Position numbers and translations under genes: made by a program. A DNA stretch of 64,000 nt from Burkholderiales bacterium (lineage in GTDB: Bacteria; Pseudomonadota; Gammaproteobacteria; Burkholderiales; Burkholderiaceae_C), in assembly GCA_031380885.1 (NCBI GenBank), contig JANMXL010000064.1, positions 5,842 to 69,841 of the forward strand. Direction: 5' to 3'. The notes under the pieces were generated by a model. That model was given only the letters and a program-made list of their open reading frames with translations. It was not told the origin of the DNA and ran no database searches. Every line of letters begins with the position of its first letter. Within the stretch, counting starts at the first letter, position 1. This document shows, piece after piece, positions 4,008 to 45,466 of the stretch.

Positions 4008-4067
4008 GGCGGGGCAGTCGAGAGGTGCGTGATGGGTGTTCAGGGATGAATGCGGGCCGAGCGCAAC

Positions 4068-5471
<1,404 letters not shown>

Positions 5472-16311: not shown

Positions 16312-16497
16312 CGGGTGCTCCTTCAATAGTGCCTCTGCGCAATGTGCGGGTCGGCGTGGTGAACACAAGAGGTGATTGTCTGCGGCCGCCGAACAGCTCG
16401 AAAAATCGGAAAAAACGCCCGATCGCTCTCACAATCGCGCTGCCGTTACCGAACGCTGCATCCTGCGGCTTTCGCTTCGGCCTGGGAGCCGCGCTCG

Positions 16498-17946
16498 ATG
16501 ACACACGCTTTGATCGTTGACGACGATGTGGATTCGGCGTCCACCCTGAAGGCGCTGATCATGGCCGAGCACTGCACCGTCGCCGTAGCCCACAACCTGC
16601 GCGATGCGCGGCGCCAAATCGTGTTGCAGCAACCGGAACTGGTGCTGCTCGATCTGCAACTGCCCGACGGCAATGGCCTGGACCTGTTCTCCGAGCCCGA
16701 GCTGCTGGCCGATTCCGAGGTGGTGCTGATCACCGGGCATGCCTCGCTGGACACCTCGATCCAGGCGCTGCGCCTTGGCGCGGCGGATTACCTGGTCAAG
16801 CCGATCAACCTTCGTCAACTGCAAGGCGTGCTGTCGCGGGTCACAAAGCCGGCGCTGTTGAAAGCCGAGGTCGAGACGCTGGCCGCGCAGGTGGCACCCA
16901 GCGGCCACTTCGGGGCGCTGTGGGGCCGCACGCCGGCGATGCTGCGGCTCTACGAGCAGATCGCCCGCGTGGCGCTGACCAGCGTCACCGTGTTTATTAC
17001 CGGCGAGAGCGGCAGCGGCAAGGAGGTGGTGGCGCAGACGGTGCATGACCTGAGCCGCCGCCGCAAGCAGCCTTTCCTCGCCGTCAACTGCGGTGCGATC
17101 TCGCCCAACCTGATCGAGAGCGAGATCTTCGGCCACGAGAAAGGCAGCTTCACCGGCGCCGACCGGCAGCACCTGGGCTTTTTCGAGCGCGCCAGCGGCG
17201 GCACGCTGTTTCTCGATGAAATCACCGAGATGCCGATGGAGCTGCAAGTCAAGCTGCTGCGCGTTCTGGAAACTGGCTGCTTCATGCGGGTGGGCTCGAC
17301 GCAGATGCAGGCGGCCGATGTGCGCGTGCTCGCCGCCACCAACCGCCGCCCGGATGAAGCGGTGGCCACCGGCAAGCTGCGCGAAGACCTGCTGTACCGG
17401 CTGAATGTGTTCCCGATCGAGCTGCCGCCGCTGCGTGATCGGCTCAGCGATGTGGGCCTGCTGGCGCAGCATTTCCTCAGCTCCTTCGGAGTGCAGGAAG
17501 GCCAGGCCAAGCACTTCAGCGCGGCTGCGCTCGAGCGGCTCGCGCAGTACCGCTGGCCGGGCAATGTGCGCGAGCTGCGCAACGCGGTGCAGCGCGCCTA
17601 TGTGATGGCTGCCGGTGACGTCATCGACGCGCAGTGGCTGCCGCAGCCGTCGCCCGCCGTTGTGGGCGCCATGGCGGGCGCCACCGCCTCGGTGACGCCG
17701 CTGCCCGCGGCGTCAGTGGCACGACGACCGGCCTCGGCATCGGACGAGGCGTTCGAACAGGAGTCGATCATGCTGCCCATCGGCACATCGCTGGCTTCGG
17801 CCGAGCGCACGCTGATCCTCGCCACCTTGCGCCACCACCATCACCAGAAGGAACGCACCGCCGCAGCGCTCGGCATCAGCCTGAAAACGCTCTACAACCG
17901 GCTCAAGGAATACGCCGCCGACGGCCTGGAGCATCCAGTGGCCTGA
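16498..17946 (+). CDS. sigma-54-dependent response regulator (REC, AAA+, Fis-type HTH)
   Basis: REC 'LIVDDD..LLDLQLPDGNG', Walker A 'GESGSGKE', sigma-54 contact loop 'GSFTGA', C-terminal HTH. No adjacent kinase. Confidence 0.9.
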   Translation: MTHALIVDDDVDSASTLKALIMAEHCTVAVAHNLRDARRQIVLQQPELVLLDLQLPDGNGLDLFSEPELLADSEVVLITGHASLDTSIQALRLGAADYLVKPINLRQLQGVLSRVTKPALLKAEVETLAAQVAPSGHFGALWGRTPAMLRLYEQIARVALTSVTVFITGESGSGKEVVAQTVHDLSRRRKQPFLAVNCGAISPNLIESEIFGHEKGSFTGADRQHLGFFERASGGTLFLDEITEMPMELQVKLLRVLETGCFMRVGSTQMQAADVRVLAATNRRPDEAVATGKLREDLLYRLNVFPIELPPLRDRLSDVGLLAQHFLSSFGVQEGQAKHFSAAALERLAQYRWPGNVRELRNAVQRAYVMAAGDVIDAQWLPQPSPAVVGAMAGATASVTPLPAASVARRPASASDEAFEQESIMLPIGTSLASAERTLILATLRHHHHQKERTAAALGISLKTLYNRLKEYAADGLEHPVA

Positions 17947-18682: not shown

Positions 18683-18713
18683 GATCGCGCTCGAAGTGGG
18701 AAATGCCTCCACG

Positions 18714-18727
18714 GGCACAACGTTTGC
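18714..18727 (+). promoter_or_regulatory. putative sigma-54 promoter core GGCACaacgtTTGC, upstream of the L,D-transpeptidase gene
   Basis: Canonical GGCAC-N5-TTGC, 36 nt from the annotated TTG start. Back-to-back with the 18669 site. Confidence 0.55.
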
Positions 18728-18762
18728 CGTGAAGTGGGTCTCGTCCCGCTGCCACTCACGCC

Positions 18763-19425
18763 TTGACGCCCAACACCTGCACCGTCGATTCGATACCCCA
18801 GCGTGCGCGACGCTGGTTGATCACCGCTGTCCTGGCGTGTTTTGCCGCATCGGCCCCGGCCGCGCCGGAGGTGGCGTTGTCGAATGACGCCCAAGCCCTG
18901 GTGAAGCAGGTGGCGCTGTCGAACGATCACCAGGGTGCACCGTTCCTCGTGCTCGATAAACACCAGGCCCGCCTCTGGGTGTTCGACACCCAGGCGCGCC
19001 TGCAGGGAAGCACCCCGGTGCTGCTCGGCCTGGCGATCGGCGACGACACCGCGCCTGGCGTTGCCGAGCTGCCGCTGGCGCAGATCGCCGATGCCGCGCG
19101 CACCACGCCGGCCGGGCGCTTCGTCATCGAGCCCGGGCGCAACCTGCATGGCGACGAGATCCTGTGGATCGACTATGCCGCGGCGGTGTCGATGCACCGC
19201 GTGCGTTCGGTGAATGCGGGTGAACGTCGATTGCAACGGTTGGCGTCACCCATCCCGGCTGACAGGCGCATTTCCTATGGCTGCATCAACGTGCCGGTGG
19301 CCTTCTTCAACCGCGTGCTGACGCCGTTTCTTCAGCAGTCGCGGGCCATCGCCTACGTGCTGCCGGAAACGCGGCCGATGGAGGCGGTGTTCCCGTTCAT
19401 GGGAACGCAGGTGACTGGCCGCTGA
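18763..19425 (+). CDS. L,D-transpeptidase family protein
   Basis: YkuD-type catalytic 'SYGCINV' and signal-like 'WLITAVLACFAASAPA'. The TTG start is uncertain. Confidence 0.8.
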   Translation: MTPNTCTVDSIPQRARRWLITAVLACFAASAPAAPEVALSNDAQALVKQVALSNDHQGAPFLVLDKHQARLWVFDTQARLQGSTPVLLGLAIGDDTAPGVAELPLAQIADAARTTPAGRFVIEPGRNLHGDEILWIDYAAAVSMHRVRSVNAGERRLQRLASPIPADRRISYGCINVPVAFFNRVLTPFLQQSRAIAYVLPETRPMEAVFPFMGTQVTGR

Positions 19426-22028: not shown

Positions 22029-23909
22029 TTACCGATGGGCTGCAACACCTTCCATCGCGTCGTGCAGCGCGATCACCAGCGCGCCCGGCGGGCAGGGTTT
22101 GGCAAGCACGACGAAAAATTCGTCGGCCGATGTCAGCGCGGCATAGCCGCTCAGCAGCACCACCGGCAGGTCGGGGCAGTAATCACGCAGCACGCGCGCC
22201 AAGCCCAGGCCGTCCATGCCGCCAGGCATCCTGATGTCCGACAGCACCACATCGAACGCGGGTTCGTCGGCGATCAGCCGCAGTGCGCCCTGCGAATCAG
22301 CGGCACGCCGCACCTCGCAGCCCAGCTTCCTCAACAGCACCGCGGTCATGTCGGCCAGGTCGTCGTTGTCCTCCACCAGCAGCAGTCGGGTGCCGTCGAT
22401 CGAAGGTGCCCCGCCATTGAGCGCCGCCGGGGCGACGATGGCAGCCGGTTCGTCGCGCGCTGGCAGCAGCAGCGACACCGTGGTGCCCAACCCCTCGGTG
22501 CTGGTCAGCCGCGCGGTGCCGCCGGCTTGCTTGCAGAAACCCAGCACCTGGGCCAGGCTGAGCCCGGTGCCCTGGCCGACTTCCTTGGTGGTGAAAAAAG
22601 GCTCGAACACCTGCCCGGCCACGTTGTCGTCAATGCCCAGGCCGTCATCGCTGATGGTGATCAGCACATAGTCGCCGGCCGGCAGGTCGGGCACCTCGTC
22701 GTCGTGCGCGCGGCGTGCCTGCAGGTTCAGGTGACCGCCCAGCGGCATCGCGTCGCGGGCGTTTAGCGTCAGGTTGGTCAGCGCCAGTTCGAGTTCGTTG
22801 GTGTCGATGGTGACGCGCGGCGTGTCAGGCGCCACGGCCACCGTGACCTCGATGCGCGCGCCCAGCACGGTCTGCATCAGGTCCTGCAACTCGGGCAGCG
22901 CGCGCGCCAGATCGACCGGCTGCGCACTGACCGGCTGCTGCGCGGCGAAGCGCAGCAACCGCTGCGTCAGTCGGCTGCCCACCGCCACCGCGCGCAGCGT
23001 CGCGGCCAGCGGCGCCTGCAACTCGGCGGCGCTGCTCTGACGCTGCATCAGGTGGGCGCTGTTGCTGATCACGCCGAGCAGGTTGTTGAAGTCGTGCGCC
23101 ACGCCGCCGGTCAGCCGACCGAGCGCCTCGATGTGCTGGCTGCGTGAGATGCGCTGTTCGGCCTCGCGGGTGCGCGTGACGGCTTCGGCGACCCGGCGTT
23201 CGAGTTCGCTGCGGGAGTGCCTCAGCGCGTCGGCAGCGGTGGTCAGCGCTGTGGCCACCTCATCGTACTCGGCGATGCCGGTGCTGTGTCCTGTCACTGG
23301 CTCACCCCCCTGCATGCCGCTCGCAGCGCGCTGGAGTGCATGCACCGGCTCAACAATTCGGCGCGCCGCCCACAACGCGCCGAACACCGCGACCCCCAGC
23401 AACAGCAGCGAACCCAGCACCACCTTCTGCACCGCAGGCGGCATGGCAGCAACCAGCGTCGGCTGCGGCAGCGCACTGACCAGCGTCCAGCCGCTCACCG
23501 TGGTGTGGAGGTAGGCGCTCATCGCCCGGCCGTCCGCCCCGGTGGCCTCGAATGCCAGCTCGCGGCCAGGGGCCAGCTGTTGCCGCACCTCGGGCGTCAA
23601 GCGGGGCGCGGCGTTGGCGAGCCCCCCGGGTTGCACCACCACGATCTCGCCGCCCGGCGCCATCACCTGAACCACCCAATCCGGTGGCAGGCCTTGCCGG
23701 GCGATCAACCGCTGCAACTCGGCGGGGCGCTGCGGGGTCGCCAGGTCGATCGCCGTCGCCAGCGCACGGGTGGTCTCGCTCAGCTGGCGATCGAGTGCCT
23801 GTCGCTCCGCGTGGTAGGTCTGGTTGATGATCCAAAGCGCCGCCACCACGCCCGGCACCAGCACCGACAGCACGAGCAGCAACAGGCGGGAGCGGATGGA
23901 AACGGGCAT
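22029..23909 (-). CDS. hybrid sensor histidine kinase/response regulator
   Basis: Two TM segments with a periplasmic loop, H-box 'AHDFNNLL', ATPase 'GTGLSLA', C-terminal REC 'LLVEDNDD...DIRMPGGMDG'. Confidence 0.9.
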   Translation of the reverse strand: MPVSIRSRLLLLVLSVLVPGVVAALWIINQTYHAERQALDRQLSETTRALATAIDLATPQRPAELQRLIARQGLPPDWVVQVMAPGGEIVVVQPGGLANAAPRLTPEVRQQLAPGRELAFEATGADGRAMSAYLHTTVSGWTLVSALPQPTLVAAMPPAVQKVVLGSLLLLGVAVFGALWAARRIVEPVHALQRAASGMQGGEPVTGHSTGIAEYDEVATALTTAADALRHSRSELERRVAEAVTRTREAEQRISRSQHIEALGRLTGGVAHDFNNLLGVISNSAHLMQRQSSAAELQAPLAATLRAVAVGSRLTQRLLRFAAQQPVSAQPVDLARALPELQDLMQTVLGARIEVTVAVAPDTPRVTIDTNELELALTNLTLNARDAMPLGGHLNLQARRAHDDEVPDLPAGDYVLITISDDGLGIDDNVAGQVFEPFFTTKEVGQGTGLSLAQVLGFCKQAGGTARLTSTEGLGTTVSLLLPARDEPAAIVAPAALNGGAPSIDGTRLLLVEDNDDLADMTAVLLRKLGCEVRRAADSQGALRLIADEPAFDVVLSDIRMPGGMDGLGLARVLRDYCPDLPVVLLSGYAALTSADEFFVVLAKPCPPGALVIALHDAMEGVAAHR

Positions 23910-25947: not shown

Positions 25948-27609
25948 TCAAGTCGTCTCGACAGGCCCTGGCGGGGCCGCCGGTTGGCCGGTCACCGGCA
26001 GCGTGATCGTGAACTCGCTGCCCAGGCCCTGACCTTCGCTGTGCGCCCTGACACTGCCACCGTGGGCGGCCACAAGTTCGCGCACCACCGTCAGGCCCAG
26101 GCCGAGGCCGTTGCCGTTGAAGGCGGCGGCATGCGTGTCCTGCACGAACGGGTCGAAGATGTGCGGCAGCGTGCGTGGGCTGATGCCGATGCCGTTGTCG
26201 CGCACCGTCAGCACCACGCTGTCGCCCACAGTCGCCATCGTCAGCGTGATGACACCTGCAGAAGGCGTGTACTTCGAGGCGTTGTCGAGCAGGTTGCGCA
26301 GCACCTGGGCCAGCCGCATCGGGTCGCCGTTGAGCAACAGTTCAGCCGTGGGCATATGAATCACGAGCTGCTGCCGTCGCTTGTCCATTGCCGGACGGCA
26401 GCTGTCGACCACCTCTTCGATCAGCGCGTGCATGTCCAGCTGCTGCCGCTCCAGCCGCAGCTTGCCGCCGTTGATGCGCGACACATCCAGCAGGTCGCCG
26501 ACCAGCCGCGACAGCTGCGCCACCTGCCGCTCGATGACGGCATTCATTCGCGGCAACATCGGATCGCTGCTGCCGCTGCGGCCCATCACTGCCGACGCGG
26601 TGCGGATCGACATCAGCGGCGATCGCAATTCGTGCACCGCCCGCACCATGTTTTCGGTGTGCCGTTGCAGCGCACGTTCGGCGCTGGTCTGCGAGGCCTT
26701 GGCATCAAGGGCGCTCAGCAGCAGGTGCTCGTTGGCCTCCTGCAACTGCGCCTGCCGTTGGACTTGGTCGCCGGGTGTGTTCGGTGTCGACACCAGCGTT
26801 CGACGCATCGAATCGGGTGGTGCGGCCGGCGACTCCAGTTCGGCAAAGTTGCTCCGGTCAAAGAACATGCGGTGGCTCTGGTCGAGCCGCTTTGCGCGGT
26901 ACATCGCGGCATCGGCCCGGTCGATCAGCGTGCACGCCTCATCGCCGTCGTCGGGGAAGAGGCTGATGCCGATGCTCGCCTTCAGGCTCAGCACTCGCTC
27001 GCCGATGCGGGTGGGCCGCGCCAGCGCCAGGTTGATCTTGTCGGCGATGGCCGCCGCGTCGCTGGCCTGCGCCACCTCGTCCAGCAGGATCAGGAATTCG
27101 TCGCCGCCGTGCCGACTGACGGTGTCCGATGCCCGTACCGACTCCACCATGCAGCGGGCGGCCAGCTTCAGCACCTCGTCACCCAGGGCGTGCCCGAAGG
27201 TGTCGTTGATCTGCTTGAAATGGTCGAGGTCGAGAAACAGCAGCGCCATGCGGGCGTTGCGGCGCCGCTTGCCGGCAATCGCCTGCGTGAAGCGGTCGAG
27301 AAACAGCATGCGGTTGGGCAGCTGCGTCAGCGCGTCGAGCTCGGCGACGCGCGAGACTTCCATCAACGCGCGCATCGCGCCTTCGGCATCGGTCTTCGCC
27401 TGCAGCACCGAGATCACCAGCCGCTCATTGGCCTCTAGCAGGTCAGCCACATGCGTCGACTTCAGCTGTGCCGACGCCGCGACGACACAGGCCTGCAATT
27501 GCGCCAGCACCCCCCGCGTGTGGTCTACCTCGGCACGCAACTCGGTGAGCTCACGTGTGGCGCGAGCGATTGCAGCGTCTGCGTCGTCGGGAGGGGCCGG
27601 CGTGTTCAC
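25948..27609 (-). CDS. GGDEF diguanylate cyclase fused to a histidine kinase (coiled coil, GGDEF, HisKA, HATPase)
   Basis: 'RHGGDEFLILL' preceded by 'RASD' at I-site spacing. H-box 'VHELRSPL'. ATPase 'GNGLGLGL'. GTG 27609 chosen because it is 22 nt after the kaiC stop; the longer ORF would overlap kaiC by 176 nt. Confidence 0.8.
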   Translation of the reverse strand: MNTPAPPDDADAAIARATRELTELRAEVDHTRGVLAQLQACVVAASAQLKSTHVADLLEANERLVISVLQAKTDAEGAMRALMEVSRVAELDALTQLPNRMLFLDRFTQAIAGKRRRNARMALLFLDLDHFKQINDTFGHALGDEVLKLAARCMVESVRASDTVSRHGGDEFLILLDEVAQASDAAAIADKINLALARPTRIGERVLSLKASIGISLFPDDGDEACTLIDRADAAMYRAKRLDQSHRMFFDRSNFAELESPAAPPDSMRRTLVSTPNTPGDQVQRQAQLQEANEHLLLSALDAKASQTSAERALQRHTENMVRAVHELRSPLMSIRTASAVMGRSGSSDPMLPRMNAVIERQVAQLSRLVGDLLDVSRINGGKLRLERQQLDMHALIEEVVDSCRPAMDKRRQQLVIHMPTAELLLNGDPMRLAQVLRNLLDNASKYTPSAGVITLTMATVGDSVVLTVRDNGIGISPRTLPHIFDPFVQDTHAAAFNGNGLGLGLTVVRELVAAHGGSVRAHSEGQGLGSEFTITLPVTGQPAAPPGPVETT

Positions 27610-27631: not shown

Positions 27632-29170
27632 TCAGCGCGCTGGCTCTGGTGCGGTGGGCACGGGGTCGGCGCTGTGGGGCGCTGGTGAGCCCTTGCGGGT
27701 CGGGCGGCCGCCCAGCAGGCCTTCGTGATCGGGCAGCATGCTGCCGACGACGATGCCTCTGTCATCGATGACGAATTCGCGCAACTCGTCGGAGTGCGCG
27801 CTGGCACGCACCTTGACCACCGCCATCACGCGGCGCAGGCGGCTCGCGACCTCGATGTAGCGCTGCACGATGATCGCGTCGGTCATGAACGCCGTGCCAT
27901 ACGGGCTGAAGCGCAGGTCGGTGTAGCGGTCTTCCAGCTCCGAGGTCATCAGCACCGTGACGCCGACATCCGTCATGGCCTTGACCAGACGCGACAGCGA
28001 TTCACGGAAGTCTTCGCGGAAGGTCGGCGCCACCGACAGCTCGAAGCCCGACAGCGAGTCGATGACGACACGGGTGGCGCCGCGGCGGTGGATCTCTTCG
28101 AGCAGCAGCACGATGATCTCGTCGATCGACAGATCAGGCGCGCGGCTGTCGACCACGCCAACCAGACCGGCCTCGACCAGATCGGCAACCACCCGATTGC
28201 GCGAGCGATTCGGGTGCTGCTCGAACACCGCGATCACGCCAGCCTCGCCGAGGCGTGCGCCTTCGGCCAGGAAGGCGGCTGCCAGGATGCTCTTGCCCGA
28301 CCCCGATGGCCCGGCCACCAGCAGTGAGTAGCCGCGCGGCAAGCCGCCGCCCAGCATGTCGTCGAGCGCGGGCACGCCGGTCAGTGCTCGCTGTGGCGTG
28401 AAGTGCGCCGACCCGTTGGCGACGCCATTCGCTGTCATGGTGGCGCCAGCAATTGACCGCGCGGCGGGTGGCGCGAAGATGCGCACGCCGCCGCTGTCGA
28501 TGCGAAAGGTGTGCAGGCCCGGCAGAGTGGGCTGGCCGCGCATTTTCATGATTTCCATCTTGCGAACGACCGAGTTGCGCAGCGCGCTTTGGCGCAGCCA
28601 GATCAGCCCGTCGGCGACGGTGAACACCGGGTTCGCGTCGGTCTCGACGAAGTACTCGCCGAGCAGGAAGGTGGTGGCCTGCCAGCTCGTCATCAGCATG
28701 CCGAGCTGTTGCACGAACTGCTGCAGGTTGTTGTGCGGGCTCGGCACCTGGCTGGCCGATTCGCTGGCCAGGATCACCGAGCGGAACGAGTCGACGAACA
28801 CCAGCGCCGGGCTATGGGTGGTGACTTCCTCCACGATGCGGCGCAGCACGCGGTCGAGGTCGCCGACCATCGCTTCCTCGGACAGGTTGATGAAGCGGAT
28901 CGAGGTGTTGACCACTTCGTTGTCGAAAAAGCCGAATTGCTGTTGGTAACGCAGCATCTTCAGCGGCGGCTCGCCGAGCACGGTGAAGTACAGCGCCGGG
29001 CGCTCGGGCGTGGCCAGCGCGAACATGATCTGGTGCGCCAGCGTGGTCTTGCCGCAGCCGGGTTGGCCCGCGATCAGGTTGAACGAGAACTCGGGCAGCC
29101 CTCCGCCCAACACTTCGTCCAACCCCGGCACGCCGGTGGCCAGGCGGTTGATGGTCACTTTGGCACTCAT
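27632..29170 (-). CDS. kaiC: KaiC-family double-domain RecA-like ATPase
   Basis: Two KaiC domains with Walker A 'GQPGCGKTT' and 'GPSGSGKS'. 'GVPGLDEVLGGGLP' and 'GVPALDDMLGGGLP' repeats. 512 aa. Confidence 0.9.
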   Translation of the reverse strand: MSAKVTINRLATGVPGLDEVLGGGLPEFSFNLIAGQPGCGKTTLAHQIMFALATPERPALYFTVLGEPPLKMLRYQQQFGFFDNEVVNTSIRFINLSEEAMVGDLDRVLRRIVEEVTTHSPALVFVDSFRSVILASESASQVPSPHNNLQQFVQQLGMLMTSWQATTFLLGEYFVETDANPVFTVADGLIWLRQSALRNSVVRKMEIMKMRGQPTLPGLHTFRIDSGGVRIFAPPAARSIAGATMTANGVANGSAHFTPQRALTGVPALDDMLGGGLPRGYSLLVAGPSGSGKSILAAAFLAEGARLGEAGVIAVFEQHPNRSRNRVVADLVEAGLVGVVDSRAPDLSIDEIIVLLLEEIHRRGATRVVIDSLSGFELSVAPTFREDFRESLSRLVKAMTDVGVTVLMTSELEDRYTDLRFSPYGTAFMTDAIIVQRYIEVASRLRRVMAVVKVRASAHSDELREFVIDDRGIVVGSMLPDHEGLLGGRPTRKGSPAPHSADPVPTAPEPAR

Positions 29171-29601
29171 GTCGTCAAGTCCTTTGCGGTGGGGCCGCTC
29201 GAAGCAGCGGCCCACACGGAACGCAGCAATCGTTCAGTAAGAGATGGTCCGACCATGCTGACCAGCAGGTCGTGGAAAGTTTCGAAAAGCAGGGCCGCGC
29301 CGGCTGTGGCCTCCAAATGCGATTGCTGCTTGAACACCGAATTCAGGTCGGACAGATTGACCGATGCCAGCGCGTGGTCATGCACCTCCATCAGCCACGG
29401 ATGGCCCTGCGCCGCCACATACACACTGCGCTTGTAGAGGGCCGCGAAACCGCGCGGGCCAACGATGGGTGTCAAGGCCGCATCGATCTCCTGCCATGCC
29501 ACAACGACAGCATCAGCGAGCCGGCCGGCATCTGCATAGGCGCTCACGCGGTGTGCTAAAGGGGGGGCGAGCGAGCCACTCGCAGGGCTTTCCATAGACA
29601 T
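29167..29601 (-). CDS. hypothetical protein, first gene of the kaiC operon
   Basis: ATGA overlap with the kaiC start. No family recognised and not KaiA/KaiB-like. The start may be 29595, 29601 or 29706. Confidence 0.55.
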   Translation of the reverse strand: MSMESPASGSLAPPLAHRVSAYADAGRLADAVVVAWQEIDAALTPIVGPRGFAALYKRSVYVAAQGHPWLMEVHDHALASVNLSDLNSVFKQQSHLEATAGAALLFETFHDLLVSMVGPSLTERLLRSVWAAASSGPTAKDLTT

Positions 29602-29780
29602 GTCCAGTGAACGTTCCTCATGGAGAGAGTGATGGTATGCCCCGTTTGTGGCAATCGCGTTCCACAACTCGATCAGGCGGCCGCTGACGCCGGGCGGCCG
29701 CTTCATCGAGGCTGTCGCTCAAGGCCGTGCTGGCGTGACATGGGAGTGGCTTGGTAGAGAGGGTGCATTGCGCAATCTTG

Positions 29781-29794
29781 GCAAGCGGTGTGCC
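29781..29794 (-). promoter_or_regulatory. putative sigma-54 promoter core GGCACaccgcTTGC (minus strand), upstream of the kaiC operon
   Basis: Canonical GGCAC-N5-TTGC. 75 nt from ATG 29706, or 180 nt from 29601. Confidence 0.55.
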
Positions 29795-29798
29795 CAAT

Positions 29799-29814: not shown

Positions 29815-29943
29815 TGACCGGCAAGGCGTGAACGCGCCTGATCGGCAAAATTTACCGTAATGCAGGCCGCATCGGTAAGGCGACCCGAGTGGCCCGGCGA
29901 GCGGGCCTGTCGCTTGCCCGGGCAGTTGCGCCTGGCGCGGCAC

Positions 29944-29957
29944 GGCACGGGGGTTGC
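29944..29957 (+). promoter_or_regulatory. putative sigma-54 promoter core GGCACgggggTTGC, upstream of the rpoN copy
   Basis: Canonical spacing. 37 nt upstream of GTG 29994, with AGGAG at 29981-29985. Confidence 0.55.
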
Positions 29958-29993
29958 GAACGCTCGGTGCAGACCCCTTGAGGAGCGGCCGCT

Positions 29994-31457
29994 GTGGTGA
30001 CCCTGAATTTTCAAACCGATACCCGTCAAGTGCAAGCCCTGTCGCCGCGTTTCCAGCATGCGGTGCGGCTGCTGCAGCTGTCGTCGATGGACTTTGCTGC
30101 CACGGTGCGCGACGTGCTGGGCCAGAACCCGTTTCTGGAGATCGAGGACGGCGTGGCGGAGGGCGAGGGCGCCGACGTCGATGCGTTGGACGGTGACAGT
30201 GCTGAGGCCTTGGCTTCAGCTGCGATGCCGTTCGACGACCACGCGATGTCGTCGGACGCGGAGGGCCTTGCCGACGACCGCGGCGACGATCGCGACCTGT
30301 GGCTGGTCGAAGGCTCGTCGTCGCAGCGGCAGGCGGGCGATGGCGACGTGTCGGCGCTGGACCTGATGGCGGTTGATCTTCCGCTGAATGCGCACCTGAA
30401 TGCCCAGCTCGATCTGCAACCGTTGGCGACCCGCGAGCTGTGGATGGCGCGCGCCATCGTCGAATCGCTCGACGACGACGGCTACCTGCGCACCCCGCTG
30501 GCCGAGCTGTGCGAACTGGTACCGCTGAATCCACCGGTGGACGCCGCCGAGATGCAAACGGCCTTGCAGCGCGTGCAGGCGTTGGACCCGGCGGGCGTGG
30601 GCGCTCGCAGCGTGGCCGAATGCCTCACGCTGCAGCTGCCGGCGATCGAATGCCCGCTGCTGCGCGGGCTGGCTGAGCGCATCGTGACCGAGCACCTGAC
30701 GCTGCTGGCGGCGCGCGATGTGAACGCGCTGGCGCGTGCGCTCGGCGAACCGGCGTTGCGGGTGCAGCAGGCGTGCGATCGCATCCGCCGCTTCGATCCG
30801 CGGCCTGGCTGGCGTTTCAGCTCGATTCGCACCGCCTATGTGGTGCCCGATGTGGTGGTGAAAAAGGTGCGCGGCGAATGGCGGGTGCAGCTGAACCCGG
30901 CGGTGATCCCGCGGGTGCGCCTGAACCAGGTTTATGCCGCGCTGTTCAAGCGCCACCGCAGCACCGCCAACGCCGACATGGCCGGCCACCTGCAGGAAGC
31001 GCGCTGGACGGTGAAGAACGTCGAGCAACGCTTCTCGACCATCCTCGACGTGGCCGAAGCGATCGTCAAGCGGCAGCGTCACTTCCTGGAATTCGGGCCG
31101 ATGGCGATGAAGCCGCTGGGCCTGAAGGAGATCGCCGATGAACTCGGCATCCACGAGTCCACCGTTTCGCGGGTCACCAACAACAAATTTATCGCCACCC
31201 CCAGCGGTGTGTTCGAACTGAAGCATTTTTTCTCGCGGGTGATGGTCACGGCCAACGGCAGCGCCTGTTCGGGCACGGCCATCCGCGGGTTGCTGAAAGA
31301 CTTGATCGCCGCCGAGGCACCCGATGCGCCGCTGTCCGATGCCGAAATCACCCGGCAGCTGGCCCAGCAGGGGCTGGTGGTGGCGCGGCGCACCGTCACC
31401 AAATACCGTCAGCTGCTGCGCATCGACGCGGTGGGACGGCGCCGCCGCCAGGCCTGA
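29994..31457 (+). CDS. rpoN: RNA polymerase sigma-54 factor outside the canonical rpoN context (likely paralog)
   Basis: Region I 'RLLQLSSMDF', acidic region II, C-terminal RpoN box 'ARRTVTKYR'. No lptB/hpf/ptsN neighbours. Confidence 0.9.
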   Translation: MVTLNFQTDTRQVQALSPRFQHAVRLLQLSSMDFAATVRDVLGQNPFLEIEDGVAEGEGADVDALDGDSAEALASAAMPFDDHAMSSDAEGLADDRGDDRDLWLVEGSSSQRQAGDGDVSALDLMAVDLPLNAHLNAQLDLQPLATRELWMARAIVESLDDDGYLRTPLAELCELVPLNPPVDAAEMQTALQRVQALDPAGVGARSVAECLTLQLPAIECPLLRGLAERIVTEHLTLLAARDVNALARALGEPALRVQQACDRIRRFDPRPGWRFSSIRTAYVVPDVVVKKVRGEWRVQLNPAVIPRVRLNQVYAALFKRHRSTANADMAGHLQEARWTVKNVEQRFSTILDVAEAIVKRQRHFLEFGPMAMKPLGLKEIADELGIHESTVSRVTNNKFIATPSGVFELKHFFSRVMVTANGSACSGTAIRGLLKDLIAAEAPDAPLSDAEITRQLAQQGLVVARRTVTKYRQLLRIDAVGRRRRQA

Positions 31458-31479
31458 CCTTGTGGCAGAAACCGCTTGC

Positions 31480-31493
31480 GGCACGTCGCTTGC
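31480..31493 (+). promoter_or_regulatory. putative sigma-54 promoter core GGCACgtcgcTTGC, upstream of the 31576-35336 operon
   Basis: Canonical GGCAC-N5-TTGC, 83 nt upstream of ATG 31576. Confidence 0.55.
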
Positions 31494-31575
31494 CATTAGT
31501 TACATCACCGGCGGCACCGTTTCGCTGTTGCAGCGCCGGACGGCTGTGCGCCGTGTGAACCTTGGAGCCACGTTT

Positions 31576-32166
31576 ATGAATATCGACATGAATCTGATCA
31601 AGCGCTGGCCGCGGCCGGTCTCGCTCGACATCGCGATCCACTACGAACGCAGCGTGCCGGATCGGCGCGCCTATCGCCTGGCGCCATGTGACGGCACGTC
31701 GCAAGTTCGGGTGCAGCTCCCGCAGCACGGCGCCATGCCGCTCGAAGTGCAGAGCATGGATTGGTCTCAGCTGCCGGGCAATACGCTGTATCTGCGCAGC
31801 CTCAGTGTGCTCGCCGTGCACCTGTTCGGCGCGGTGGCGATGCCGCCGCGTGTGTGCGGCGCACCGCTGTGGCAGCACATCAATGTTGGCATCTCGACCG
31901 ATGACCACAGCGCACACCCGCTGTATTTCGAGCTGGACGCCATCGACGACAGGCGCGCGGTGCTGCGTTACCGCTTTCAGCATCATCAGCCGCTGGTTCG
32001 CCGCGCGCTGGCTCTCGACCGGCTCGACGCCGACCCGTTACGTGCGCTGTTGCGTGTGGGAGCGACGCGCGTGCGCCCTGGTCTGACGCGAAACGCGGAG
32101 CCGATGCGCTCCGCGCCGCCGCCACGACACGTTCACGCGGCGGCCGACATGGCGCTGCGCGCGTGA
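31576..32166 (+). CDS. hypothetical protein
   Basis: ATG preceded by GGAG at 31564-31567. 196 aa. No family recognised. Confidence 0.55.
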   Translation: MNIDMNLIKRWPRPVSLDIAIHYERSVPDRRAYRLAPCDGTSQVRVQLPQHGAMPLEVQSMDWSQLPGNTLYLRSLSVLAVHLFGAVAMPPRVCGAPLWQHINVGISTDDHSAHPLYFELDAIDDRRAVLRYRFQHHQPLVRRALALDRLDADPLRALLRVGATRVRPGLTRNAEPMRSAPPPRHVHAAADMALRA

Positions 32167-32191: not shown

Positions 32192-32893
32192 ATGATTGCG
32201 GTCATCGTTCCGGTGCATAACGAGGAGGCGTACCTCGCCGCCTGCCTGCGTTCGGTACGCGAGGCCTCGCGGCGCCGGCGCCTGGACGGCGAGCCCGTGC
32301 TGCGGGTGGTGGTGCTCGACAACTGCAACGACGGCAGTGCGGACATCGCCCGCGTCTGCGGCGCCCACACGCTGCGCTTGCAGGCCTGCAACGTGGGCGC
32401 GGCACGGGCACTTGGTGCACAGTGGGCCATCGATCGAGGCGCACGCTGGTTGGCCTTCACCGATGCCGATTCAGTGGTTGCGCCCGAATGGTTGTCGTCA
32501 CAATTGGCGCTGCGCAGCGATGCGGTGTGTGGCACGGTCGCGGTCAGCAACTGGGGCGATTACGGTGAGCGCATGCGCCGCCATTACGACGCCACCTACA
32601 CCGATGCCGACGGCCACCATCACATCCACGGCGCGAATCTGGGCGTTAGCACGGCGGCGTACTGCCGCGCCGGGGGCTTTCAGCCGTTGACCAGCAGCGA
32701 AGACGTGGCGCTGGTGCGTGCGCTGCAAGCCAGCGGCGCTGCGATCGCCTGGTCAGCCGCGCCCCGCGTGACGACGAGTGCGCGGCAGCTCTACAAAGCG
32801 CCACTGGGCTTCGGAGCCACCCTGCAGCGCATCGATGCCGAGAGCCGGTACCGTGCCGAGGGCCGTGAAATAGGCGCTGCCACTGCGTCATGA
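32192..32893 (+). CDS. family 2 glycosyltransferase (short, soluble type)
   Basis: 'VIVPVHNEE', 'VLDNCNDGS' and 'FTDADS' (DxD). Confidence 0.85.
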   Translation: MIAVIVPVHNEEAYLAACLRSVREASRRRRLDGEPVLRVVVLDNCNDGSADIARVCGAHTLRLQACNVGAARALGAQWAIDRGARWLAFTDADSVVAPEWLSSQLALRSDAVCGTVAVSNWGDYGERMRRHYDATYTDADGHHHIHGANLGVSTAAYCRAGGFQPLTSSEDVALVRALQASGAAIAWSAAPRVTTSARQLYKAPLGFGATLQRIDAESRYRAEGREIGAATAS

Positions 32894-33972
32894 GCACCGC
32901 CAGTGCTGCCGTCAGGATGGTGTCGCCAACGCTGCTGATCCGCCTGCGCCGCGCGCTGGCCGATCAGGACCCGCAGGCTGAAGCTTGCGATCGGCTGAAC
33001 GCACTGGTGGCTGCTGGCTTCGGCGATTTGCCACAGCCTGGTGGCGGCCAGACGCTGCTGCGCTGGCAGGCGCTGGCGGCGGTCTCCGAACACGATCTGT
33101 CGCTGGGCAAACTGTATGAAGGCCACACCGATGCGCTTGCGGTGATGCGCGAGTTGGCGCTGGACCGCGACATCGCTGCCGACAGCACCTGGGGGATGTG
33201 GGCGGCCGAGGGATCTGGCGCGCGCGCCACGGTGAAGTCCCGGCCCGACGGCCGAGTGTCGCTGCACGGCGCCAAGACGTGGTGCTCGGGGGCGGCGCGC
33301 TTGAGCCATGGGCTGCTGACCGCCTGGCCCACGAATGATGTCGGGCCACAGCTGGTGCGCGTGGTCATGAATCAAGACGGGGTGACGGTTGATGGCAGCA
33401 CTTGGCGTGCTGTTGGCATGGCAGGCAGCGCCAGCGTGGATGTGTCGTTTTCAGGCGCGGTGGGTGATGCGGTCGGCGCACCCGGCGACTATCTGTCCCG
33501 GCCCGGCTTCTGGCAGGGCGGCGCGGGCATCGCGGCGTGCTGGTACGGCGGGGCGCGCGCGCTCGGCGTGGCGCTGCGCCACTCGGTCGCGCGCACGACC
33601 GACGCCACCCGCAGCCTGTTCGGCCCCTTGGCGGTCGGCCGTGTCGATGTGGCGCTGCACAGCACCGCGGCGCTGCTGCGCGATGCGGCGCAATGGATAG
33701 ACGCCCATCCGCTGGCCGATGCCAGTGAGGTGGCGCTGCGCACCCGGCTCGCGGCCGAGTTGTGCGCCAAGGTGTTGCTGGACGAGGCAGGTCGTGCCCT
33801 GGGCGCCGCGGCCTACTGTCGCGACCGGCACTTTGCACGCATGGCCGCTGATTTGCCGGTGTTCGTGCGGCAAAGCCATGCCGAGCGGGACTTCGCCGCA
33901 CTGGGCGAGCGGGTGGCGGCACCGCTGCCAGCCTCCCGCCATGGCACCGACGACAGCCCATGGGCGCTCTGA
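32890..33972 (+). CDS. acyl-CoA dehydrogenase-like protein
   Basis: ACAD-like middle and C-terminal pattern ('GAKTWCSGA', 'GGAGIAACWYGGA'). 4-nt overlap with the GT2 gene. Confidence 0.7.
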   Translation: MSTASAAVRMVSPTLLIRLRRALADQDPQAEACDRLNALVAAGFGDLPQPGGGQTLLRWQALAAVSEHDLSLGKLYEGHTDALAVMRELALDRDIAADSTWGMWAAEGSGARATVKSRPDGRVSLHGAKTWCSGAARLSHGLLTAWPTNDVGPQLVRVVMNQDGVTVDGSTWRAVGMAGSASVDVSFSGAVGDAVGAPGDYLSRPGFWQGGAGIAACWYGGARALGVALRHSVARTTDATRSLFGPLAVGRVDVALHSTAALLRDAAQWIDAHPLADASEVALRTRLAAELCAKVLLDEAGRALGAAAYCRDRHFARMAADLPVFVRQSHAERDFAALGERVAAPLPASRHGTDDSPWAL

Positions 33973-34721
33973 CCGCTCGACGTGCCATCGAAGGCGTCGG
34001 CTGCACCGAATCGGTGTGGCGCGAGTGGCTGGATGCCCTGGACGTGCCGACGCTGGCGTGGAACGACTGGCTGCCCGCAACGGCACGGCTGGTGGTGGTT
34101 GCGCCGCACCCCGACGACGAGGTGCTGGCCTGCGGCGCGCTGCTGGCGATGCATGCGGCGCGCGGTGGTGAGTGCTGCGTCGTGGCGGTCACTGACGGCG
34201 AAGGCAGCCACCCCGGATCGAAGCGGTGGACCCCCCAGCAGCTGACAGCTGTTCGCCGCGCCGAAAGAGCCGAAGGCCTGCTGCGGCTCGGCCTGGGTGG
34301 CGCGTCGCTGCATGGCCTGGGGCTGCCTGACGGTGCGGTGCAGACACAGGCCGACGTGCTCCGATTGCGCCTGACCGACTTGTTGCGGCCTGCCGATGTG
34401 GTGGTCACCACCTGGCCGCTCGACGGCCACCCCGACCACGATGCCTGCGGTGCCGCCGCCGTGCAGACCTGCGCTGCCGTGGGGTGCCGCTTGCTCACTG
34501 CGCCGGTGTGGATGTGGCATTGGGCCGCGCCCGGGGATGCGCGTGTGCCCTGGCATCGGCTGCGCGCGCTGCAAGTCGATTCGGCAGCGCTGCAGCGCAA
34601 GCAGGCGGCACTGGAGGCGCATGTGTCGCAGCGCACCGCGCGGGAAGGCGGGCAGGGCCCGGTGCTCGGCGCTGAAATCCTGGCCCGGGCGGCACGCGAG
34701 CGCGAATACTTTTTCGTTTGA
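33960..34721 (+). CDS. PIG-L/LmbE-family deacetylase
   Basis: 'VVAPHPDDEVLACG' Zn motif and 'HPDHDA'. Confidence 0.85.
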   Translation: MGALTARRAIEGVGCTESVWREWLDALDVPTLAWNDWLPATARLVVVAPHPDDEVLACGALLAMHAARGGECCVVAVTDGEGSHPGSKRWTPQQLTAVRRAERAEGLLRLGLGGASLHGLGLPDGAVQTQADVLRLRLTDLLRPADVVVTTWPLDGHPDHDACGAAAVQTCAAVGCRLLTAPVWMWHWAAPGDARVPWHRLRALQVDSAALQRKQAALEAHVSQRTAREGGQGPVLGAEILARAAREREYFFV

Positions 34722-34736
34722 ACCGAGGCCGCCACG

Positions 34737-35336
34737 ATGTCGCACACACCTGCCTATTTCGACTCGATGTTCCATGCCGACAGCGATCCGTGGAAGTTCC
34801 GCACGCGCTGGTACGAGGTGCGCAAACGCGCACTCACCCTGGCGTGCTTGCCGAAGTCTCACTACGACGCGGCCTACGAGCCGGGTTGCGCCAACGGCGA
34901 GCTGTCGGCCGCGTTGTCCGAGCGTTGCTCGCGCCTGCTCGTTTCCGATGGGTCGGCCCCGGCGGTGCAGTTGGCCCGACAACGCCTGGCGGGGCTTGCG
35001 CATGTTGAAGTGCGGCAGGCCTGGGTGCCGACGCAATGGCCAGACGAGCAGTTCGACCTGATCGTCATCAGCGAGCTGGCCTACTTTCTGACCGCCGGCG
35101 CACTGGACGCCATGATCGGAAAAATCAAGGCGTCCCTGAGTTCGGGCGGCACCGTGTTGGCGTGCCATTGGCGACGGCGCAGCGACGACTGCGAATTCAG
35201 CGGTGACCGGCTGCACCGCCAGCTGGGCAGCGGGCTCGGTTTGCCGCACCTGAGCCGCTTGATCGAGCCCGATGTGCGCGTCGATGTGTGGAGCGCCGAC
35301 CCGCGCTCGGTGGCGCAGCAGGAGGGTTTCGCGTGA
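34737..35336 (+). CDS. class I SAM-dependent methyltransferase (NodS-like)
   Basis: 'YFDSMFHADSDPWKFRTRWYEVRKR' N-terminus and 'EPGCANGELS' motif I. Confidence 0.85.
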   Translation: MSHTPAYFDSMFHADSDPWKFRTRWYEVRKRALTLACLPKSHYDAAYEPGCANGELSAALSERCSRLLVSDGSAPAVQLARQRLAGLAHVEVRQAWVPTQWPDEQFDLIVISELAYFLTAGALDAMIGKIKASLSSGGTVLACHWRRRSDDCEFSGDRLHRQLGSGLGLPHLSRLIEPDVRVDVWSADPRSVAQQEGFA

Positions 35337-35345
35337 TGCGCCCGG

Positions 35346-36095
35346 CTACAGGCTCAGCAGCTGTGACAGCAACGCGTTGACCTGAGATTGCGCGCCGAGC
35401 CGAAAGCGCGCGCAGCTGCTTGTGCCCACCGGCGCGATGCGCACGCTGACGCAGCCCGCACCGGCGCGGGCGAACGCCGGCTCGTCGTTCACGTCATCGC
35501 CAACGATCAAGGCGTTCGGTGCGCCGCATTCGTGCATCAGCTGCACCAGCGCGTCACCCTTGTTCGGCGCATTTGACGGGGTGATGTTCAGCACACTGTG
35601 GCCGTGTGCCGCGGCGATGCCGGGCCCGTGCGCTGCGGTCAGGCTGTCGAGCCAGCGGCGCACCGAGGCGACGTCTGCCGATCGCCGGTAGTGCCATGCC
35701 AGTGATGCGCCCTTGTCTTCGACATCGACGCCGCGCTCATCGAACACCCGGGCCCACTGCCGCGCCTGCTCGCGACAGCCGGCGAGCGCGTGGTGCGGTG
35801 CCGGGAATGAGGTGCTGCCGGCCCGCTCGGCACCGTGATTGCCCACCAGGAAGCGCGGCTCGAAGCCGAGGCGAAGCCGGGCGTCGGCCACCGCCCGACC
35901 GGTGATCACTGCCACCGGCCAGCGCCGCGCCAGCGCTTGCAGCCGTGCGGCGGTGATGCGCGAGACCGCCGCATCGCTCGGCCGCATGACGAGCGGTGCC
36001 AGTGTGCCGTCGAGGTCGAAGGCAAGCAACGCATGCCTGTGGCTGAGTCGCCGCAAGGCCCGCAGCCCTTGCGGTGAGAAGAGCGATGCGGTCAT
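35346..36095 (-). CDS. otsB: trehalose-phosphatase
   Basis: 'LAFDLDGTLAP' HAD motif and 'VGDDVNDEPAF'. ATGA overlap with otsA. Confidence 0.85.
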   Translation of the reverse strand: MTASLFSPQGLRALRRLSHRHALLAFDLDGTLAPLVMRPSDAAVSRITAARLQALARRWPVAVITGRAVADARLRLGFEPRFLVGNHGAERAGSTSFPAPHHALAGCREQARQWARVFDERGVDVEDKGASLAWHYRRSADVASVRRWLDSLTAAHGPGIAAAHGHSVLNITPSNAPNKGDALVQLMHECGAPNALIVGDDVNDEPAFARAGAGCVSVRIAPVGTSSCARFRLGAQSQVNALLSQLLSL

Positions 36096-40454: not shown

Positions 40455-40519
40455 GCCCGATGGTATGCGCCGCTCATATTCGACCGCAAGTTGATGCGAA
40501 GGCAAATTGGCGTCGGTCC

Positions 40520-40533
40520 GGCACGCCGTTTGC
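40520..40533 (+). promoter_or_regulatory. putative sigma-54 promoter core GGCACgccgtTTGC, upstream of the Crp/Fnr-family gene
   Basis: Canonical GGCAC-N5-TTGC, 51 nt upstream of ATG 40584. Confidence 0.55.
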
Positions 40534-40583
40534 CGATGGGTGGCATGAAATGCCTTTGCGAATCTCCTCCTCGACGCTTTGCG

Positions 40584-41336
40584 ATGCCGATCCCGATGCC
40601 GCTGCACAGCGCGGCGCTGGACATCAGCCAGAGTGCCCACAGGAACGGCCTGCTGGCGCGGTTGCCCGAGGCGGCGTGGCAGCGCTGGCTGCCACAGCTC
40701 GAATGGGTCGACCTGCCGCAGGGCCACGTGCTGCATGAATCGGGCACGTCGCTCGCGCACGCCTACTTCCCGACCACCGCCATCGTGTCGCTGCTCAATG
40801 TGACGCAGGACGGCGCTTCGACTGAGATCGCTGCGGTCGGCAATGAAGGCGTGGTCGGGGTGTCACTGTTCATGGGCGGGGTGTCGGCCTGCAGCCGTGC
40901 CGTCGTTCAAAGCGCCGGCTTCGGGTTGCGGCTGAAGGCGCATGCGATGCGCGCCGAGTTCGAACGTTCCTCGGAAGTGATGCAGGTGCTTCTGCGCTAC
41001 ACCCAGGCCCTGATGACGCAGATGGGGCAGACGGCGGTGTGCAATCGCCACCACTCGATCGACCAGCAGCTGTGCCGCTGCCTCCTGCTGAACCTGGACC
41101 GGCTGGGCGGCAACGAGATCGTGATGACGCACGAGCTGATCGCAGGCACCCTGGGCGTGCGCCGCGAAGGCGTTACCGAGACGGCGCTGAAGTTGCAAGC
41201 GGCCGGATTGATCCGCTATGCGCGCGGGCACATCACCGTGCTCGACCGTGGTGGTCTGGAGCGCCGCGCCTGTGAGTGCTATTCGGTGGTGAGAAAGGAA
41301 TACGACAGCCTTCTGACCGACCAACTGGCAGCCTGA
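40584..41336 (+). CDS. Crp/Fnr-family transcriptional regulator
   Basis: cNMP-binding-like N-terminus and C-terminal HTH 'HELIAGTLGVRREGVTE'. This is the C-terminal part of an artefactually long ORF. Confidence 0.85.
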   Translation: MPIPMPLHSAALDISQSAHRNGLLARLPEAAWQRWLPQLEWVDLPQGHVLHESGTSLAHAYFPTTAIVSLLNVTQDGASTEIAAVGNEGVVGVSLFMGGVSACSRAVVQSAGFGLRLKAHAMRAEFERSSEVMQVLLRYTQALMTQMGQTAVCNRHHSIDQQLCRCLLLNLDRLGGNEIVMTHELIAGTLGVRREGVTETALKLQAAGLIRYARGHITVLDRGGLERRACECYSVVRKEYDSLLTDQLAA

Positions 41337-45194: not shown

Positions 45195-45270
45195 GGGCTC
45201 TTAGCTCAGTTGGTAGAGCAGCGGACTCTTAATCCGTAGGTCGAGTGTTCGAGTCACTCAGGGCCCACCA
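45195..45270 (+). tRNA. tRNA-Lys (anticodon CUU)
   Basis: 76 nt. Acceptor GGGCTCT/AGGGCCC, anticodon loop CT-CTT-AA, T arm GAGTGTTCGAGTCACTC, encoded CCA. Confidence 0.95.
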
Positions 45271-45290
45271 AAAATTAAGTGTTGAAGATC

Positions 45291-45324
45291 AACGGCCTGG
45301 CGGAAACGCTAGGCCGTTTTGTTT
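45291..45324 (+). terminator. rho-independent terminator after tRNA-Lys(CUU)
   Basis: AACGGCCTGGCG-gaaa-CGCTAGGCCGTT followed by TTGTTTGT. Confidence 0.6.
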
Positions 45325-45466
45325 GTGTCGACGACCTCGCGAGACCGCGATGTTCATGGCATCAGCACAGAATCGGCACGCGCTGAGACTGGTGCCGACA
45401 GCCACGCGCTATGGTCAACCGGCAGGTTGCGAATCGATGCAAAGAAGGCGACATTCGACGCCGAAT

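Follow-up and report, generated by a model that had tools for sequence, protein, structure and literature searches.

How paralogous sigma-54 factors separate their regulons on near-identical -24/-12 promoters is understood in few species only. Multiple copies of rpoN, the gene for sigma-54, occur in about 5% of genomes (PMC12316311). In Ralstonia solanacearum, a sigma-54 promoter precedes rpoN2, which is no longer expressed when rpoN1 is mutated (Ray et al. 2015, PMC4371752; a second source is Lundgren et al. 2015, PMC4676750); Ralstonia rpoN2 has no known phenotype. The prxS-rpoN2 genes of Mesorhizobium loti have an RpoN promoter and an upstream activating sequence (UAS) for NifA (PMC3538637). 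For RpoN1-RpoN4 of Cereibacter (Rhodobacter) sphaeroides, discrimination between the paralogs at position -11 has been described (Poggio et al. 2002, 2006, as far as they are cited in PMC3162934 and PMC3538637). In Burkholderia pseudomallei, which has an rpoN2 on chromosome 2, katE expression drops in the mutant (PMC4745423). The gene considered here is an rpoN at 29994-31457 on the plus strand of a 64,000-nucleotide stretch from a Burkholderiales bacterium (assembly GCA_031380885.1, contig JANMXL010000064.1, positions 5,842 to 69,841), hereafter the window. Comparison with related loci suggests that it is a second, specialised rpoN2 with its own -24/-12 promoter, probably expressed through a sigma-54 cascade.

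The sigma-54 gene and its protein

The open reading frame (ORF) at 29994-31457 is a complete, intact sigma-54 gene encoding 487 amino acids from a GTG start. Pfam detects all three sigma-54 domains in the product, namely AID (PF00309, residues 9-50, 37.7 bits against a cut-off of 23.8), CBD (PF04963, residues 131-314, 183.5 bits) and DBD (PF04552, residues 331-485, 190 bits). The NCBIfam models NF009118 (504 bits, cut-off 396) and TIGR02395 (408 bits, cut-off 277) also match, and residues 11-484 align with the solved enterobacterial sigma-54 of PDB entry 7qv9_M, its region I included. An RpoN box ARRTVTKYR, an acidic region II and an RLLQLS motif had been named in a preliminary description made from the letters alone; all three are present, the acidic stretch at about residues 50-125, together with ESTVSRVTNNK in the helix-turn-helix (HTH). 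The GTG start is backed by orthologues, one of which (L015) has ATG at the same position. The Shine-Dalgarno sequence AGGAG (29981-29985, plus strand), 8 nt before the GTG, is kept in an alignment of 12 orthologous intergenic regions.

The same description regarded the N-terminus as diverging from the usual region I, which is correct in part. The window protein is poor in leucine, with 7 in 50 residues compared with 10-15 in the roughly 50 residues of canonical RpoN, and it carries the signature SPRFQHAVRLLQLSSMDF. Region I is nevertheless present and recognisable as PF00309 and is not aberrant, and the signature is family-wide in the clade (6-9 leucines) rather than peculiar to one protein. 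In region I, the clade reads [ST]PRLQHAVRLLQ[LM]SS[LM]DF where canonical proteins have L-TPQLQQ[SA]I[RK]LLQLST-LEL. The HTH recognition helix is ESTVSRVTNNK instead of ESTISRVT[TS]QK, and the RpoN box is ARRTVTKYRQ instead of ARRT[VI]AKYRE.

Placement among sigma-54 paralogs

The proteins closest to the window RpoN come from Burkholderiales metagenome-assembled genomes (MAGs), Rhizobacter, Rubrivivax and Roseateles. An identical protein is encoded in assembly GCA_043739975.1. Peptide patterns specific to the paralog were used to retrieve 80 related loci from species-representative genomes, spanning Rubrivivax, Roseateles, Rhizobacter/Piscinibacter, Caldimonas, Aquabacterium, Ideonella, Hydrogenophaga and Delftia; numbers beginning with L denote individual loci. 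An lptB/hpf context beside rpoN occurs in none of the 80, where the neighbours are stress-type genes. Around the window gene, lptB, hpf and ptsN were likewise not found by Pfam and NCBIfam among the neighbouring ORFs, which are p179 and a kaiC-like gene on one side and p196 and a GT2 glycosyltransferase gene on the other. RpoNs with the classical N-terminus (L-TPQLQQSIRLLQLST) are located in kdsDC-lptCAB-rpoN-hpf-ptsN-hprK-rapZ clusters (L092-L094).

In a neighbour-joining (NJ) tree (476 columns, 100 bootstraps, distance method only), the window RpoN forms a clade with all stress-context copies, a set of cluster representatives of the PRLQ type and the megaplasmid-borne RpoN2 of Ralstonia, with a support of 97/100. 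The lptB-context RpoNs of beta- and gammaproteobacteria stand outside this clade. Over aligned columns, the window protein is 36-42% identical to canonical beta- and gammaproteobacterial RpoNs and about 43-44% identical to Ralstonia RpoN2. Identity alone was therefore rejected as proof of kinship with Ralstonia RpoN2, the latter value being barely above the former; only the tree and the shared signatures group the two. The window protein also scores below the NCBIfam equivalog cut-offs of NF004598, NF004595 and NF004597. Two canonical-looking representatives, P0148 and P0390, derive from Burkholderiales MAGs and Casimicrobiaceae, not from the Rubrivivax group.

According to a published list (PMC12316311, S5 table), two rpoN genes are present in Rubrivivax gelatinosus IL144, Roseateles depolymerans, Roseateles sp. 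DAIF2, Mitsuaria sp. 7, Caldimonas brevitalea, Aquabacterium olei, Delftia lacustris and Hydrogenophaga sp. BPS33, and three in Piscinibacter gummiphilus. These are the genera that carry the window-type copy. The analysis thus supports reading the gene as a probable second, paralog-type rpoN of the betaproteobacterial RpoN2 family and not as the housekeeping rpoN, because of the 97/100 clade, the non-lptB context and the two to three rpoN genes listed for the same genera. By analogy with these genera, it suggests that the host genome also carries a primary rpoN. The preliminary description had proposed a paralog outside lptB-rpoN-hpf, and both its placement of the gene and its reading of it hold up well in this comparison.

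The rpoN promoter and a candidate enhancer

The element GGCACGGGGGTTGC lies at 29944-29957, 37 nt upstream of the GTG at 29994 and with AGGAG in between, exactly as had been described. It belongs to a -24/-12 promoter, CGGCACGGGGGTTGCGA, at 29943-29959 (plus strand), with GG at 29944-45, GC at 29956-57 and a G following TTGC. A GGYAY-N5-YTGC element is found 45-145 nt upstream of rpoN in 75 of the 80 loci, where by our estimate about one locus would be expected by chance. The 12 aligned kaiC-rpoN intergenic regions have a mean column identity of 41% and contain three conserved islands, namely the rpoN promoter itself, whose core columns are invariant, a minus-strand promoter at 29780-29795 and a central element at 29843-29878. 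Judged by this phylogenetic footprinting, the sigma-54-type promoter is confirmed as real. The motif is not regarded as a chance match because it is conserved across orthologous loci, which is stronger evidence than its count in the window (GGCAC-N5-TTGC occurs 7 times against 1.52 expected, and 1 of 100 shuffles reached 7). A sigma-70 consensus was not found around the gene by a simple, insensitive scan. No Rfam family was detected around it either, and the one terminator-like site, fewer than in shuffles, lies inside the rpoN coding sequence.

The central element is a candidate UAS located between the divergent promoters. It consists of the near-palindrome CGGCAAAATTTACCG at 29843-29857 and a third half-site, CGGTAA, at 29873-29878. 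Of 74 loci, 55 have the palindrome CGGCAA-N3-TTGCCG, with at most two mismatches, at 68-186 nt (median 118) before the -24 element, compared with 2.3% of random control regions. This geometry fits an enhancer for a sigma-54 activator. In the window, a single copy is found at one mismatch or fewer. A role as general enhancer of the regulon was rejected, as no copy lies upstream of the window's other promoters. In L021 (about 5780-5800) and at the equivalent position of L022, two related MAG loci, the palindrome has 10-15 consecutive G in place of its left half, perhaps an assembly artefact or a tract prone to slippage. The kaiC-rpoN intergenic region of a Rhizobacter MAG (L020, about 1390-1440) contains five tandem copies of GGCGCTGTT.

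A response-regulator-type bacterial enhancer-binding protein (bEBP) is encoded at 16372-17946 (plus strand), although its true start is probably an internal Met near 16498. It combines Response_reg, Sigma54_activat and HTH_8 domains. In 27 other loci (Caldimonas, Delftia, Hydrogenophaga), an orthologue with 60-69% identity is encoded no more than 5 kb from rpoN2, and 28 other loci have a homologue if the 52%-identical one flanking Ralstonia rpoN2 is included. All 29 bEBPs found near rpoN2-type genes have a GSFTGA loop instead of the usual GAFTGA, namely those of the window (position 17143), of 27 genome loci (Caldimonas group L062-L091, Delftia L083, Hydrogenophaga L040) and of one Ralstonia locus (L095). 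The loop might co-vary with the altered region I of rpoN2-type sigma factors. As the likeliest protein to bind the palindrome, we infer the co-localised GSFTGA bEBP of the response-regulator type.

A second promoter class and its putative regulon

Further -24/-12 elements in the window share a C after TTGC and are referred to as the TTGCC class. The promoter GGGCACACCGCTTGCC (29780-29795, minus strand) precedes the operon of p179, the kaiC-like gene and a GGDEF/histidine kinase gene and is conserved in 8 of the 12 orthologous regions. On the plus strand, CGGCACGTCGCTTGCC (31479-31494) begins 22 nt after the rpoN stop codon; it is found at the same place in L010 and L012-L017, and equivalent TTGCC-class elements follow rpoN in L018-L022. 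The promoter CGGCACGCCGTTTGCC (40519-40534, plus strand) precedes a crp-like gene. Identical or near-identical elements lie before crp in L010, L012, L013 and L019-L022, in some with one base of difference in the spacer, and related elements are present in L016, L018 and L043. A fourth promoter of this class, at 18713-18728 (plus strand), precedes the gene at 18763-19425. Taken together, six of the seven motif matches in the window lie upstream of co-oriented genes, which are ppnP, the gene at 18763, p179-kaiC, rpoN, p196 and the crp-like gene.

Several of these matches deserve a remark. The element GGCACCTGAGTTGC (4063-4076, minus strand) lies 56 nt upstream of ppnP (3696-4007, minus strand), which encodes a PpnP-family nucleoside phosphorylase, and overlaps the end of the gene preceding it. 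The 220-residue protein encoded at 18763-19425 (plus strand) has no Pfam match and is conserved in several loci with 57-87% identity; its SYGCINVP motif recalls the catalytic site of L,D-transpeptidases. A TTGCC-class match, CGGCACCGTGATTGCC (35828-35843, plus strand), lies antisense inside otsB (35346-36095, minus strand) and is either a chance occurrence or an antisense promoter.

Across 81 loci (940 kb), the motif GGCA[CT]-N5-TTGC has 283 matches compared with about 29 in Markov-simulated sequence. The matches separate into two classes according to their position. The base after TTGC (-11) is G in 42, A in 16, T in 14 and C in only 1 of the 73 rpoN promoters, whereas it is C in 180 of the 210 other promoters. 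T at -26 is found in 35 of 73 rpoN promoters and in 18 of 210 others, and the spacer reads GGnnG in the former and GCCGn in the latter. Among 720 validated sigma-54 promoters from a published list, counted crudely by 5-mer, TTGCT occurs 247 times, TTGCA 129, TTGCC 53 and TTGCG 20 times.

Genes behind TTGCC-class promoters, called with a crude ORF rule, encode hybrid histidine kinases (27 loci), members of the p196 family (12), Crp-like regulators (12), hemerythrins (11), topoisomerase IB (11), YeaQ/YmgE-type membrane proteins (10) and BON-domain lipoproteins (8), in addition to the p179-kaiC operon (4). A GSP26-like protein, an outer-membrane beta-barrel protein and a metallopeptidase belong to the same set. 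The bacterial type IB DNA topoisomerase (for example at 2424-3749 of L063) is an unexpected member of the putative regulon. As a whole, the gene set looks like a general-stress and envelope set. The island also contains the trehalose genes otsBA, which themselves have no TTGCC-class promoter. The literature that was searched contained no paper on this clade, on its KaiC-like neighbour or a link between KaiC and rpoN, on the enhancer palindrome or on the TTGCC promoter class, and nothing relevant on rpoN2 in Comamonadaceae or the Rubrivivax group. The second promoter class, with C at -11, looks undescribed.

Proposed cascade and alternative explanations

In the proposed mechanism, RpoN2 would be a specialised second sigma-54 of the Rubrivivax/Roseateles/Rhizobacter group, encoded in a stress and envelope island beside tolB-pal. 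An activator, probably the co-localised response-regulator bEBP, would bind CGGCAA-N3-TTGCCG about 100 nt upstream of the rpoN2 promoter, and RNA polymerase with the housekeeping RpoN1 would then transcribe rpoN2. If this promoter is sigma-54-dependent, the first RpoN2 must therefore be made by polymerase carrying another sigma-54. RpoN2 in turn would steer the polymerase to the variant promoters GGCAC-GCCGn-TTGCC, which have C at -11 and no T at -26. Its targets would include the kaiC-like operon, the gene of the 196-residue protein with the sugar-modification genes and the crp-like gene, and in relatives also hemerythrin, BON, YeaQ-like, topoisomerase IB and hybrid-kinase genes. The complete sigma-54, its paralog clade, the conserved promoter with its UAS and the two promoter classes are visible in the sequences and their comparison, and we infer from them which holoenzyme uses which class, which activator binds the palindrome and that the island has a role in stress. 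A cascade in which RpoN2 reads the TTGCC class is considered the best explanation and, with moderate confidence, the probable one. The preliminary description had concluded that either a cascade or autoregulation was implied; this follows from the conserved sigma-54 promoter, and the cascade is the favoured branch.

Several points weigh against the proposed cascade. The C split at -11 gives a Fisher p of 1e-41, a value to which the 73 rpoN promoters contribute as orthologous and not as independent observations. The base at -11 of the rpoN promoter is mostly G, the rarest one in the validated promoters, so that the promoter is not of the canonical RpoN1 type. The genes assigned to the regulon depend on the crude ORF rule mentioned above. 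The rpoN2 locus of Ralstonia has no TTGCC-class promoters, and the class may be limited to the subclade of the window. In this clade, moreover, the evidence for a cascade consists of sequence statistics and comparison. Finally, no second rpoN was found in the 64-kb window, to which the search was confined.

This last point, together with the completeness of the protein, would also suit a host in which the window gene is the only rpoN, a primary gene that moved away from lptB-hpf and serves all sigma-54 functions. Such a relocation is very unlikely in view of the grouping with Ralstonia RpoN2 apart from the lptB-context RpoNs, the low identity (36-42%) to canonical RpoNs of the window's own class, and the two to three rpoN genes listed for genera with this copy. 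A lone rpoN relying on a sigma-54 promoter could also not bootstrap. The promoter itself might be questioned as a chance match of GGCAC-N5-TTGC in GC-rich DNA, with the gene being read from an unrecognised sigma-70-type promoter. A coincidence recurring at a consistent distance in 75 of 80 loci, with invariant columns in an otherwise 41%-identical alignment, beside a conserved palindrome at enhancer distance and in an arrangement experimentally validated in Ralstonia, has a next to negligible probability, even though the window has 67% G+C, about 1.5 such motifs are expected per window and the simple sigma-70 scan is insensitive.

A further alternative is positive autoregulation. Here, RpoN2 and not RpoN1 would use the promoter at 29943-29959, and once the activator is on, a feed-forward loop would amplify a basal transcript. 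In favour of this, the promoter belongs to the -24/-12 type, the RpoN box and the HTH are retained in RpoN2, and the window promoter has C at -26 and G at -11, where it departs from the canonical consensus. A TTGCC-class promoter also lies in the same intergenic region, which contains the UAS. Against it, the rpoN promoter avoids the C found at -11 in 86% of the regulon promoters around it, although this position varies between G, A and T. Expression of prxS-rpoN2 in M. loti is substantial in rpoN2 mutants, which indicates that either sigma factor can serve such promoters, whereas rpoN2 expression in Ralstonia is abolished without rpoN1. The cascade is preferred over pure autoregulation because of this Ralstonia result, because the promoter avoids the -11 C of the regulon, and because a promoter that relied on its own product alone could never be started. 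Autoregulation is accordingly judged rather unlikely. A self-type promoter on the paralog had been suggested as worth testing; the idea has already been tested in R. solanacearum (PMC4371752).

For a subclade comprising the Rubrivivax-Roseateles group, Caldimonas, Hydrogenophaga and Delftia, the cascade can tentatively be extended, with some doubt, to a dedicated stress and envelope sigma-54 that has its own promoter dialect and acts in an insulated two-tier cascade. The dialect GGCAC-GCCGn-TTGCC would be read via the altered HTH helix (SRVTNNK) and RpoN box (ARRTVTKYRQ), and the rpoN2 promoter with its conserved CGGCAA-N3-TTGCCG enhancer would stand outside it. The regulon would be general-stress-like, comprising the KaiC-like ATPase, the c-di-GMP/kinase protein, Crp-like, hemerythrin, BON, YeaQ-like and GSP26-like proteins and topoisomerase IB.

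Genomic neighbourhood

The operon divergent from rpoN begins with p179 (29167-29706, minus strand), a 179-residue protein. It is followed by a two-domain KaiC-like ATPase (27632-29170, minus strand), which scores far below the circadian KaiC cut-offs (201 bits in NF006799 against 408, and 118 in TIGR02655 against 546); no KaiB or KaiA domain was found in the neighbouring ORFs. Judged by these scores, the ATPase is KaiC-like only and not part of a circadian KaiABC clock. The location of rpoN between a kaiC operon and a sugar-modification operon, as first described, is accurate as to placement, with the qualification that the ATPase is not a circadian KaiC. Directly downstream of the ATPase gene and conserved with it lies a gene for a fusion of GGDEF, HisKA and HATPase_c domains (25948-27609, minus strand; Pfam), through which the ATPase may control c-di-GMP and phosphorelay signalling.

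On the other side of rpoN, p196 (31576-32166, plus strand), a 196-residue protein, is kept 3' of rpoN in all KaiC-type loci. Neither p179 nor p196 has a Pfam or NCBIfam match even at E = 0.1. The core layout, with GGDEF/HK-kaiC-like-p179 on one strand and rpoN-p196 diverging from it, is kept where RpoN is 62-92% identical. Four genes at 32192-35336 (plus strand) encode a GT2 glycosyltransferase, an acyl-CoA-dehydrogenase-like protein, a PIG-L deacetylase and a NodS-like methyltransferase (Pfam/NCBIfam). This set is found in some orthologous islands and is missing from PBB1. The deacetylase has weak similarity to BshB/MshB, and its pairing with the glycosyltransferase recalls pathways of low-molecular-weight thiols or glycolipids.

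Beyond the NodS-like gene follow otsBA (minus strand), a PAS hybrid kinase, the Crp/Fnr-family regulator (40584-41336, plus strand) and then tolB-pal-cpoB. A hybrid histidine kinase with HATPase_c and receiver domains is encoded at 22029-23909 (minus strand); its orthologues are those found behind TTGCC-class promoters in 27 loci. In the ORF at 45245-46069 (plus strand), a MarR-type HTH is joined to a nucleotidyltransferase domain of the Pol-beta type, and a 1295-residue envelope protein of the AsmA/DUF748 family (47953-51840, plus strand) is encoded after the tol-pal cluster.

Comparison with known systems

Housekeeping rpoN in kdsDC-lptCAB-rpoN-hpf-ptsN-hprK-rapZ clusters shares with the window gene the three-domain protein, the type of promoter recognised and the dependence on AAA+ activators. 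It differs in context, in the signatures of region I, HTH and RpoN box, and in its separate clade; none of the three canonical rpoN loci examined showed a -24/-12 element. The rpoN2 of B. pseudomallei is likewise a second sigma-54 of Burkholderiales with a link to a stress gene, katE, and the orthologous island of L010 contains a KatE-type catalase. For B. pseudomallei, a kaiC link is not reported.

The paralogs of R. sphaeroides, as far as they are presented in the citing papers, have distinct regulons, discriminate at -11 and use cognate activators, and the two promoter classes of the window suggest the same logic. They belong to an unrelated lineage with nif and flagellar regulons, and their specificity was established experimentally, whereas here it is derived from sequence statistics. 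Rhizobial rpoN2 is again a second sigma-54 behind an RpoN-dependent promoter with a UAS, serves a regulon of its own and cannot be exchanged for rpoN1. In contrast to the window gene, it is alphaproteobacterial, lies on a symbiosis island or plasmid and depends on NifA for a nif/fix regulon, and in M. loti it is co-transcribed with prxS. The rpoN2 of Rhizobium etli, studied by Michiels and colleagues in 1998 and known here through citations, reportedly lies behind a sigma-54 promoter as well.

The closest counterpart is rpoN2 of Ralstonia, which belongs to the same NJ clade (97/100) and is a second sigma-54 outside lptB-hpf with a -24/-12 promoter upstream. This promoter, TGGCACAGCCTTTGCA, was found again in L095. 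A 52%-identical response-regulator bEBP and a PAS kinase adjoin the gene, and its region I has the signature TPRLQ...EF. The two proteins are only 44% identical, the Ralstonia promoter is a perfect canonical TGGCAC-N5-TTGCA, and the HTH helix reads SRATGNK compared with SRVTNNK in the window. The 13.5-kb Ralstonia locus also lacks kaiC-like genes, stress-gene neighbours and TTGCC-class promoters. An rpoN2 behind a sigma-54 promoter thus repeats a design known from Ralstonia and M. loti. The value of the present locus lies in the comparative signal, namely a clade-wide palindromic enhancer, the sharp split at -11 and matching changes in the DNA-reading helix. This signal provides a concrete hypothesis for paralog-specific promoter recognition and points to a possible sigma-54-driven general-stress regulon that Burkholderiales of fresh water and soil would have, tied to a KaiC-like ATPase.

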